Origin: Dehalococcoidia bacterium
GTDB lineage: Bacteria > Chloroflexota > Dehalococcoidia > Lucifugimonadales > UBA3495
Reading direction: 5' to 3'
Length of the DNA stretch: 64,000 nt
Assembly (NCBI GenBank): GCA_965222025.1
Contig: CBDCTI010000011.1
Location: 70,990 to 134,989 of the forward strand
The notes beneath the pieces were generated by a model. It ran no database searches. It saw only the letters and a list, made by a program, of their open reading frames with translations, and was not told the DNA's origin. Positions 31,947 to 35,369 of the stretch are shown one piece after another. The first letter of the stretch is position 1. Each line of letters opens with the position of its first letter. The position numbers and the translations under genes are program-made.

Positions 31947-32162
31947 ACGAAAAGTGTCACAAAGACTTTCGAAATCGCTACTGAGCCAGATTCATGAATG
32001 GTGGTCCCCGCGGGCCTTGCGAGAGGGCACCACGGCGGCGGCAGGCGCCCGCGATGGGTTGCGCAGCTAGGGGATTTCCTTTAATCTTTTGAGCGACTTG
32101 TATTGCTTCGAGCGTCGAACGGTGTTGAGTCAGCAAACTCTGAAATCAAGAATTGGAGGGGC

Positions 32163-32636
32163 ATGATGTTTAATCCCCTGGGTTGGATCAAGCCTACGGT
32201 AGCCAAGGCCCACTGCGACATTCCCTGCGGTATTTATGACCCTGTCTCCGCCAAGATCGCGGCGCAGACGGTGCAGAAGATGGTCCTGCGAATGCAGAAC
32301 CTGGAGCATCCGGCTCCCGGATCCGAGATGTCTGCACATCAGGCGTTCGCCAACACCTTCAACCGCTACGTGCAGGTGAAGGAAGAGCACGCCGAGAAGT
32401 GCAAGGAAGAGCTGCGGATTCTCTGGGCCGATTACGCATGGCCCGGCACCGACGCCGCCGAGATTGCGGCCAAGTTCAATGCGGCCATTAAGCTGGCTGG
32501 CCAGTGCAAGCAGACCGTCAGCATGGAAAACGCCGAGAACCTGGTGGCTGCCTGCGACGACATCGCCGCTGCCTTCTGGGGCACCAAGAACCAGGAATAT
32601 AGCGACCCCCTGGCCGCCGCCCGTTACGGTACGTAG
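32163..32636 (+). CDS. sodN: Nickel superoxide dismutase precursor
   Basis: Short leader followed by the Ni-hook HCDIPCGIYDP; GGAGGGG RBS before ATG 32163. Confidence 0.93.
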   Translation: MMFNPLGWIKPTVAKAHCDIPCGIYDPVSAKIAAQTVQKMVLRMQNLEHPAPGSEMSAHQAFANTFNRYVQVKEEHAEKCKEELRILWADYAWPGTDAAEIAAKFNAAIKLAGQCKQTVSMENAENLVAACDDIAAAFWGTKNQEYSDPLAAARYGT

Positions 32637-32720
32637 GCCGCTCTGGACAGGGTTTGAAACAGGACCAGGGGCGCACAACCGTGCGCCCCTATGTTTTTCC
32701 TCGGCTCTTGCGGAATAGGA

Positions 32721-32752
32721 AACAGGAGCGGGCTAGAAAGCCCGCTCCTGTT
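32721..32752. terminator. Bidirectional terminator between sodN and hsp20
   Basis: AACAGGAGCGGGCT-AGAA-AGCCCGCTCCTGTT between convergent genes. Confidence 0.7.
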
Positions 32753-32791: not shown

Positions 32792-33259
32792 CTAGGCCGC
32801 TTCGACTGCGGGCGGGCCCTCCACGACCTTGACGTCGAACTGCTTGGCACGCTTGGCCTCGGCCTTGGGCAGGGTGATGGTCAGCACGCCGTGCTCGTAG
32901 CGAGGCTGCGCCTTGTCCTGGTCCACGGTGTCGGGCAGGCGCAGGGAGCGGTGGAAGGAGCCGCTGCGGCGCTCACGCATCAGGTAATTGCGATCGGAGT
33001 TCTCGAAGTGAGAAGCGGTACCGCCCCTGATGGTGAGTACGTTTTCCTCGATGGACACCTGGATGTTGTCGGGGGCCACGCCCGGGAGGGAGGCGCGGAC
33101 AACGAAATCGTCGCCATCGGCCACCACGTCCAGAGGCGCGGCCCATGCTTCAATGCCACCGCCGTCTTCGTGATGGGTAGCGAAACGCTTCCACATTCGA
33201 TCCATGTTTTCCTGCATTTGCCGCAGTTCGCTGAAGGGGCCCCGTCGTTGCATCATCAT
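32792..33259 (-). CDS. Hsp20/alpha-crystallin small heat-shock protein
   Basis: PLDV...ASLPGV....I.VS...NVLTIRG, RERRSGSF.RS.RLP..VD......YEHGVLTITLPK. Confidence 0.93.
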   Translation of the reverse strand: MMMQRRGPFSELRQMQENMDRMWKRFATHHEDGGGIEAWAAPLDVVADGDDFVVRASLPGVAPDNIQVSIEENVLTIRGGTASHFENSDRNYLMRERRSGSFHRSLRLPDTVDQDKAQPRYEHGVLTITLPKAEAKRAKQFDVKVVEGPPAVEAA

Positions 33260-33331
33260 GGCTTCCTCCTAAATTCCTATGCTCTGATTGGGTTTTGGAT
33301 GGACGCTCGTTGCCGTTGGTCCGGCACCGGG

Positions 33332-33511
33332 CTAGAAGTAGTAGCGGACGCCGGGGGTGGGAACCGTGTATGCCAGGATGGGCTTGCCGGGGCTCCCGCG
33401 GCGATCGGCCTGTTCCAGGATGTCCGAGACCTGCCGGGCAACCTTTTCGTTCAACTCGCGGGTCTTCTCCTCCACTGCTGCGTGCGGGTTCTGTAACTCT
33501 GCTGCTGCCAT
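33332..33511 (-). CDS. Unannotated 59-aa protein upstream of hsp20
   Basis: GGAGGAG RBS then ATG 33511: MAAAELQNPHAAVEEKTRELNEKVARQVSDILEQADRRGSPGKPILAYTVPTPGVRYYF*, with genome-typical codon use. Confidence 0.7.
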   Translation of the reverse strand: MAAAELQNPHAAVEEKTRELNEKVARQVSDILEQADRRGSPGKPILAYTVPTPGVRYYF

Positions 33512-33540
33512 TTCGCTCCTCCAATGTGGTCTACGAGGAG

Positions 33541-33575
33541 ACTATAAAAGTTGATATGATTTGTGTCAACTCAAT
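33541..33575 (-). promoter_or_regulatory. Sigma70-type promoter TTGACA-N17-TATAGT overlapped by HAIR-like inverted repeats
   Basis: -35 at 33564-33569 and -10 at 33541-33546 on the minus strand; GTTGATA-N7-TGTCAAC at 33550-33570 resembles CTTGAGT-N7-ACTCAAG. Confidence 0.75.
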
Positions 33576-33716: not shown

Positions 33717-34147
33717 GTGGCAATGCAGCAGACACGGGGAATTTACCTGATCAGCGTGGTGGCGGAGACGCTGGACATGCATCCGCAGACGCTGCGCAAG
33801 TACGAGCGGGCGGGGTTCGTGGTGCCACTGCGCATGGGGGCGCTGCGGACCTACTCGGACGAGGACGTGGCGCGGCTACGGCTGATCAAGCACTTCGTGG
33901 ACGACATGGGACTGAACCTGTCGGGGGTGCAGCTGGCGCTGAAGATGACATCCGAGCTGCTGGCTCTCCGCCGGGAGGCGGCCACAGCCGGGGCCGCAGT
34001 GGAGCGAATAGACGAGATGCTGGCAACGGTGGGTGTGCGGGTGGTGCAGCGGCAGGAACCTGAGCCAGCCGAGGAGCCGGGGGACAGCTGGTTCCAAGTG
34101 AACGAGGGCGAGGCCGTGGAGTTTGGTACGGGGACGGGTGAAGCCTA

Positions 34148-34148
<1 letters not shown>
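33717..34148 (+). CDS. hspR: HspR-like MerR-family heat-shock repressor
   Basis: YLISVVAETLDMHPQTLRKYER.G.V.P.R.G..R.YSDEDV.RL..I......GLNL.GV. Confidence 0.82.

Positions 34149-35369
<1,221 letters not shown>

Follow-up and report, generated by a model that had tools for sequence, protein, structure and literature searches.

Organization of the locus

The region analysed here is a 64,000-nt window of Dehalococcoidia bacterium GCA_965222025.1 (contig CBDCTI010000011.1, positions 70,990–134,989, forward strand), and coordinates given without a contig or locus label refer to this window. An ORF of 59 aa on the minus strand (33511..33332, with an ATG start at 33511 and a TAG stop at 33334..33332), whose product we call the microprotein and whose gene we call pep, is followed across a 72-nt spacer (33260..33331, minus strand) by hsp20 as second cistron (33259..32792, minus strand, 155 aa). 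Divergent from this pair lies, on the plus strand, a gene for an HspR-like repressor of the MerR family (33717..34148, 143 aa; Pfam MerR_1, E = 5.5e-15), whose start codon may instead be the ATG at 33723. The first-pass annotation of this DNA had named an hsp20 gene downstream of the small ORF and a divergent hspR, and both are present, the one recognized by Pfam HSP20 (PF00011, E = 3.9e-22, residues 45–140) and the other by HspR as its best NCBIfam match. Hsp20 is an α-crystallin domain protein for which AlphaFold2 gives a β-sandwich (pLDDT 90–96), and its gene is the sole copy found in the genome (a single tblastn match).

Upstream of pep we find a σ70-type promoter (33541..33569, minus strand) with the −35 box TTGACA at 33569–33564, a 17-nt spacer and the −10 box TATAGT at 33546–33541. 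An operator-like inverted repeat, TTGACAC-AAATC-ATATCAA (TTGACACAAATCATATCAA; 33551..33569, minus strand), overlaps the −35 box and the promoter spacer. After the promoter come a leader of 22–25 nt and, as read from the sequence, the Shine–Dalgarno motif GGAGGA (33517..33522, minus strand), which stands 5 nt before the microprotein ATG and bears out the strong ribosome-binding site that had been proposed for the ORF; hsp20 has a Shine–Dalgarno motif of its own, AGGAGGA, within the 72-nt spacer at 33264–33270. This arrangement of ORF, ribosome-binding site and promoter/operator recurs in 28 of 28 related loci and is far beyond chance.

Two GC-rich, terminator-like hairpins (32666..32752, both strands) lie between hsp20 and the convergent gene for nickel superoxide dismutase (sodN, 32103–32636, plus strand), and are likely to be terminators and to mark the end of the operon. 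The convergent sodN also adjoins the hspR–pep–hsp20 triad in three of the distant loci described below (L046, L048 and L049). Directly beside hspR there is an IS630/Tc1-like transposase gene (34152–35299, minus strand), split into two ORFs that overlap by 4 nt, one with the HTH part (34805–35299, minus strand) and one with the DDE_3 part (34152–34808, minus strand).

The small ORF is a protein-coding gene

Forty relatives were searched in six frames, and in 22 of 24 genomes of the same genus the microprotein frame is complete (residues 1–59) and free of stops, at 41–63 % identity. Scanning 185,579 species genomes with a sequence pattern gave 27 loci, all in metagenome-assembled genomes of Dehalococcoidia/Chloroflexi. 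Each of the 31 distinct homologues has an ATG start and a C-terminus 0–3 residues beyond ..GVRYYF (YYFF or YYFFET in two close loci), 24 of the 31 use TAG as stop codon, and the ATG together with a Shine–Dalgarno-like motif is kept in 28 of 28 analysed loci. Across hundreds of sequences the frame remains open even where identity falls to about 30 %.

In the codon alignment, within the conserved blocks Q-V-S-x-I-L and Y-R-V-P-S-P-G-V-R-Y-Y-F the third codon positions alone vary: V29 (alignment numbering) is encoded by GTC, GTT, GTG or GTA, G68 by all four GGN codons and R70 by all four CGN codons. Nei–Gojobori estimates over 465 pairs of microprotein homologues gave a dN/dS of 0.50 for the whole ORF, 0.25 for the helix block and 0.18 for the C-terminal 14-mer YRVPSPGVRYYF, with 0.67 for the N-terminus and about 1.2 for the linker, so that the N-terminal and linker parts evolve almost neutrally. 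Since the frame is conserved and the substitutions in the two blocks are confined to synonymous sites, we conclude from comparative sequence evidence that these 59 codons form a real gene that is translated, with two selected modules and a free linker, and not a conserved RNA or a chance frame. The ORF had earlier been put forward as an unannotated 59-aa gene, to be abandoned if its frame were not conserved in relatives. Such conservation is clearly present, and the claim of a real gene stands; the word 'unannotated' does not, given that public collections already list this very protein and its relatives as hypothetical proteins. That label arose from an ORF cutoff of 60 aa, and gene callers already predict the microprotein.

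The opposing explanation, that the ORF is a spurious open frame within a conserved 5′ UTR or non-coding RNA of the hsp20 transcript, could draw on its shortness, on the lack of a database family and on the nearly neutral N-terminus and linker. It would leave unexplained the synonymous-only substitutions in the two blocks, the invariant start codon and Shine–Dalgarno motif and the openness of the frame in remote homologues, and no structured-RNA signal was detected in the region (see below); we regard it as extremely improbable.

A conserved family of microproteins

When 1.84 billion representative proteins were searched with a profile, 93 clusters emerged at 50 % identity, nearly all of 57–85 aa, and a word-indexed search of 5.8 billion proteins gave 778 clusters at 90 % identity. 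These 778 relatives are labelled hypothetical or are unnamed, save for one JGI record with an unrelated automatic name; one is labelled as coming from a Dehalococcoidia bacterium, and none carries a precomputed Pfam domain. The microprotein itself matched no Pfam family at E ≤ 1 and no NCBIfam family at E ≤ 0.1, and a profile search of the PDB returned helix-only matches to designed repeat proteins and no others. By sampling, the family is present in 36 of 301 genomes of the order, in 18 of 127 genera and at least eight families, and in 3 of 401 genomes across the class. With about 780 clusters, it is a well-supported addition to the catalogue of conserved bacterial microproteins.

The modules follow a fixed order: a variable N-terminus, an amphipathic helix with the core QVSxILEEA, a variable linker and the invariant tail YRVPSPGVRYYF. 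The signature of the family is accordingly an acidic amphipathic helix (..QV..ILEEAE..) followed by [WL]xYx[VI]Px[AP]GVRYY[SF][FY]. For the microprotein, AlphaFold2 (with 28 homologues) gives one helix at residues 9–37 (pLDDT up to 88) and leaves the tail unstructured (pLDDT of about 60), in agreement with the amphipathic helix and hydrophobic tail that the first-pass annotation had predicted.

In the genus of the window the microprotein ends in ..RYYF, and we considered whether this end might be a C-terminal docking tag, either an HbYX-type activator of the proteasome or HslV, or a YxF-type PDZ ligand. Tags of both kinds need the extreme C-terminus, and YxF PDZ ligands such as those at the tails of outer-membrane proteins activate DegS. 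Many distant members of the family run on for 1–25 residues past GVRYY[SF][FY], and this candidate was therefore dropped.

A promoter and operator of the predicted HspR regulon

The promoter TTGACA-17-TATAGT agrees with the consensus at 11 of 12 positions, and two promoter-like sites are observed in the region against 0.3 expected from shuffled sequences. All of the 28 loci analysed share the promoter form cTTGACAC-N5-ATATCAAc-N3-TATAGTCT; its position relative to the ATG is −58 to −62 in 27 loci and −111 in L042. The −35 hexamer and the TATCAA within the spacer together form the inverted repeat TTGACA-N7-TATCAA, in which TTGA-N11-TCAA has the spacing of a HAIR element; σ70 needs no specific sequence in the promoter spacer, which is where TATCAA sits. 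Thus the near-consensus promoter overlapped by HAIR-like repeats, as it had been described beforehand, is confirmed, with the repeat lying over the −35 box and the spacer.

Scans with the operator pattern covered the whole 4.63-Mb genome from which the window comes. The strict pattern occurs once, at the window locus. With up to two mismatches there are 17 sites, two of which lie in promoters of the same geometry, with the −10 box equally spaced in both: TTGACACGATTCGTATCAG-N4-TATCAT at C8:471848, 66 nt upstream of an hspR–grpE–dnaK operon (C8:471914–475063, L082), and TTGACAGCTATGCTATCAA-N4-TAATAT at C8:555519, 145 nt upstream of a dnaJ–hspR–clpB operon (C8:555586–559486, L083), the genes being identified by Pfam. 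Both operons have the operator/promoter layout TTGACA-N7-TATCA[AG]. The genome accordingly holds three HspR-like MerR genes, one at the window locus and one within each of these two operons. For the window regulator the best NCBIfam match is the HspR equivalog (NF047375) at 88 bits, which is under the curated cutoff of 105, while the next MerR-type families reach about 30 bits or less.

Taken together, the HspR-like regulator, the HAIR architecture of the repeat and the near-identical sites before dnaK and dnaJ/clpB support, by inference, the HspR control that had been claimed for the operon. We suggest that this genome has an HspR regulon of classical content with a lineage-specific operator variant, in which repressor binding and heat induction are predicted, and that the microprotein would be the first thing translated from one of the promoters of this putative regulon.

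The clpB of the dnaJ–hspR–clpB operon is split (C8:557011–559486; L083:1612–4087) into two parts, Clp_N (379 aa) and AAA (603 aa), encoded by overlapping ORFs in different frames; either the gene is frameshifted or a pseudogene, or the assembly is in error here. An operator-like site, TTGACACGCATCGTATCAG at C7:483867 (plus strand), has no obvious ORF downstream. A 21-mer, CTTGAGCGCGTTTTTTTCAAG, surfaced only through its loose fit to the canonical HAIR pattern; it or its complement recurs at least five times (C5:251271, C7:15650, C9:380765, C12:104323 and C12:441249) and is likely to belong to a repeated element or to the terminator of one.

Linkage of the microprotein gene to hsp20 and hspR

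Among 27 related loci, 25 have hspR leftward and pep and hsp20 rightward, and in one genome the whole triad is present twice. Breaks of synteny at L004, L031 and L041 are due to IS or mobile-element insertions into or beside hsp20, and L025 keeps pep–hsp20 without an adjacent hspR. Identity to the window proteins is 76–89 % for HspR (54 % in L042), 53–86 % for Hsp20 and 32–61 % for the microprotein; because its range is the lowest of the three, the microprotein is, judged by these identities, the fastest-evolving protein of the triad. The triad is nevertheless kept at 30–41 % peptide identity on the long contigs of L046–L049 and L052, with the operator at −60, and it is also found in other families of the order (L055–L057, L059–L061, L070, L074 and L076). 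The claim that pep heads an operon with hsp20 is supported: there is a single strong promoter upstream, the 72-nt spacer contains no predicted terminator, and the order pep–hsp20 holds in the 25 loci as well as in the distant ones.

A different layout is seen in L053, where hsp20 comes first and pep second, divergent from dnaJ–hspR–clpB, so that the only nearby hspR lies within the dnaJ–hspR–clpB operon. Where genomes of the order have no microprotein, an HspR-like gene mostly lies about 1.1–1.3 kb from hsp20, which is compatible with an ancestral layout like that of L053. Across the rearrangements hsp20 is the most constant neighbour of the microprotein gene.

Homologues also occur alone (L043, L044, L050, L054, L058, L065, L067 and L072). 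These include a marine clade of 83-aa proteins with a basic tail (L050 and L054) and an 'MVTL' subtype in sister genera (L058, L065, L067 and L072), both with no chaperone genes nearby. Inspection of the neighbourhoods of stand-alone family members revealed no recurrent partner gene. The genome of the window itself holds a second, divergent paralogue (C10:170631–170705; L084:1036–1575, minus strand) of about 77 aa that starts MVTIL and contains ..AYTMPFPGVKYYAFEPRRR..; its gene adjoins one for a universal-stress/cNMP-binding protein and likewise has no chaperone genes nearby.

The spacer and leader RNAs were also inspected. The 72-nt spacer shows no sequence conservation and is energetically on a par with shuffled sequences when folded (z = −0.26), a hairpin in the 5′ leader is neither significant (z = 0.03) nor conserved, and no Rfam family came near its gathering score over the region (best E-value 0.22). 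An RNA thermometer is not supported by an unconserved spacer that folds no better than its shuffles, and a known cis-regulatory RNA (ROSE and similar elements) was rejected as well, as there was no Rfam match and no conserved fold that would sequester the ribosome-binding site. Seven relatives (L017, L026, L029, L032, L033, L036 and L038) have in the pep–hsp20 spacer a GC-rich hairpin, CCCTCTCCC-loop-GGGAGAGGG, which is absent in the window; in those relatives it may be a partial attenuator or an mRNA-stabilizing element. In the window the microprotein ORF and hsp20 share a reading frame, with two TAG codons between them (33260–33334), and we considered a programmed read-through of TAG that would fuse the microprotein to Hsp20. 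The two genes are in the same frame in about 10 of 29 loci, which is the level expected by chance, and this candidate was rejected.

Proposed role of the microprotein

We propose that the strong σ70 promoter drives a two-gene operon of the microprotein and then hsp20. At normal temperature an HspR-type MerR repressor, most likely the product of the divergent neighbour and perhaps acting together with the two other HspR paralogues, would bind the HAIR-type repeat and block RNA polymerase; upon heat or proteotoxic stress the repression would be lifted, and the microprotein and Hsp20 would be made together. We infer this regulatory step from the sequence architecture and from the occurrence of the same operator at the dnaK and dnaJ/clpB promoters. 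The microprotein would then act in trans, as a protein and not as a cis leader peptide, through its two selected modules, the acidic amphipathic helix (QVSxILEEAE) and the aromatic motif [WL]xYxVPx[AP]GVRYY[SF][FY], which is predicted to be disordered on its own. Its most likely role would be that of a partner or modulator of the co-encoded Hsp20 that tunes oligomer assembly or the hand-over of substrates: the aromatic motif may fold upon binding Hsp20 or Hsp20–substrate complexes, while the helix may modulate assembly or hand-over. It is the conserved gene linkage that suggests this partnership.

A microprotein of the chaperone network is the best-supported reading of these data, with gene neighbourhood as its basis, and the microprotein probably assists the heat-shock chaperone system, as a new candidate helper. 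Considering all parts together, namely the first cistron of an HspR-repressed operon encoding a trans-acting microprotein that is likely to be a partner or modulator of Hsp20, we hold this joint reading to be slightly more probable than its negation. [quoted passage not shown] A docking model was built with the read-through translation as a natural linker of 25 residues (block alignment, 9 paired and 58 unpaired rows); AlphaFold2 predicted no confident docking in this microprotein–Hsp20 fusion, with a tail pLDDT of about 58–61 and no added strand, a monomer model of an oligomeric chaperone being a weak test.

The stand-alone homologues indicate that the basic activity of the family need not require Hsp20, and together with the failure of AlphaFold2 to dock the microprotein on Hsp20 they speak for a serious rival, namely that the microprotein belongs to the heat-shock regulon but has another partner, such as HspR, DnaK or ClpB, and that its linkage to hsp20 reflects co-regulation only. 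It might provide anti- or co-repressor feedback on HspR, serve as a client-like decoy or an adaptor for DnaK/ClpB, or be an aromatic anchor at the membrane interface. In favour of this rival, hspR adjoins in nearly all triad loci, HspR systems classically use a chaperone as co-repressor (DnaK is the established co-repressor of Streptomyces HspR), and the VRYYF-type motif, with its hydrophobic residues and a basic one, may resemble generic Hsp70-binding segments. Yet pep–hsp20 persists in L025 where no hspR is adjacent, in L053 the gene follows hsp20 and the sole nearby hspR belongs to the dnaJ–hspR–clpB operon, and through all rearrangements it is hsp20 that stays. We would put the chance of a partner other than Hsp20 at roughly one in three or a little under.

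Far less probable, in our judgement, is that pep is a cis-acting leader peptide or uORF without a function of its own; hsp20 would then be controlled by translation of the ORF, for instance by ribosomes that stall at PGVRYYF-stop, or by an RNA thermometer located in leader or spacer. The ORF does lie immediately 5′ of hsp20, its C-terminus beside the stop is very strongly conserved in the manner of arrest peptides, TAG predominates as its stop codon, and in the 5′ leader CUCCUC could form a short pairing with GGAGGAG. But the reversed order of hsp20 and pep in L053, the homologues that stand alone without hsp20, the presence of another module under selection (the helix) well away from the stop and the extension of distant homologues by 1–25 residues after the motif together exclude a cis leader or arrest peptide, and neither the unconserved spacer and leader hairpin nor the Rfam search lends it an RNA structure through which to act.

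Comparison with known systems

HspR/HAIR regulons are known from Actinobacteria, Deinococcus and Campylobacterota, where HspR of the MerR family represses dnaK, clpB and sHsp genes of the hsp20/acr2 type. The system described here resembles them in that its regulator belongs to the MerR family and scores best as HspR, in the 7-N7-7 repeat with TTGA/TCAA cores placed over the promoter, in the use of one operator type before the dnaK, dnaJ/clpB and sHsp operons, and in hspR genes that are embedded in chaperone operons. It differs in the inner bases of the repeat, which are TTGACA/TATCAA here versus TTGAGT/ACTCAA, so that 8 of 14 specified positions match the HAIR consensus CTTGAGT-N7-ACTCAAG (PMC6102357), a consensus that is that of Streptomyces. 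Moreover, the left half-site doubles here as the −35 hexamer, there are three HspR paralogues, one of them dedicated to the sHsp locus, and an extra microprotein cistron stands between the operator and hsp20. A full-text literature search yielded no description of the microprotein or of an extra cistron in HspR–sHsp operons, nor, in the literature searched, of the operator variant or of a dedicated third HspR paralogue. The HspR/HAIR-controlled sHsp operon is a known type; what goes undescribed in the literature searched is above all the conserved extra microprotein cistron.

The arrest and leader peptides SecM, TnaC and MifM share with the microprotein a short ORF directly 5′ of a gene and a strongly conserved C-terminal segment; unlike theirs, the microprotein gene also occurs downstream of hsp20 or alone, its helix is under selection, and distant members do not keep the motif at the stop codon. 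The proposed mode of action has its parallel in the IxI/V ligands of the sHsp β4–β8 groove, which include the C-terminal tail of the sHsp itself and the IPV motifs of BAG3 that bind HSPB8 and HSPB6. By analogy, a short disordered hydrophobic motif could dock on the α-crystallin domain and change oligomerization, but the motif here, YxVPx[AP]GVRYY, is non-canonical and non-homologous, AlphaFold2 predicts no docking, and the window Hsp20 carries an FDVKV tail of its own. The nearest functional, non-homologous analogy is CbpM of E. coli, a small modulator that is co-transcribed with the co-chaperone CbpA and acts in trans by direct binding (PMC4063869); in both cases a small protein is encoded in the operon of a chaperone component. 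There is no sequence similarity between the two, CbpM being MerR-like, of about 100 aa and directed at a J-domain protein instead of an sHsp, and the binding of the microprotein to Hsp20 is putative.

Bacterial sHsps are not known to have dedicated partners save paralogous sHsps, and it is DnaK and ClpB that take care of substrate release. A microprotein that remains tied to hsp20 through a change of gene order and through deep divergence would, if it is a partner, challenge this partner-free picture, and it would be the first sHsp-specific co-chaperone described in bacteria and a functional analogue of BAG3–HSPB8. Such a pair would also make a simple two-component system that could be tested in E. 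coli, which is useful since the host lineage, comprising sponge, soil and SAR202-type Dehalococcoidia, is uncultured. Finally, whatever the function of the microprotein, the locus defines a putative variant of the HspR operator and the predicted heat-shock regulon of a poorly known group.
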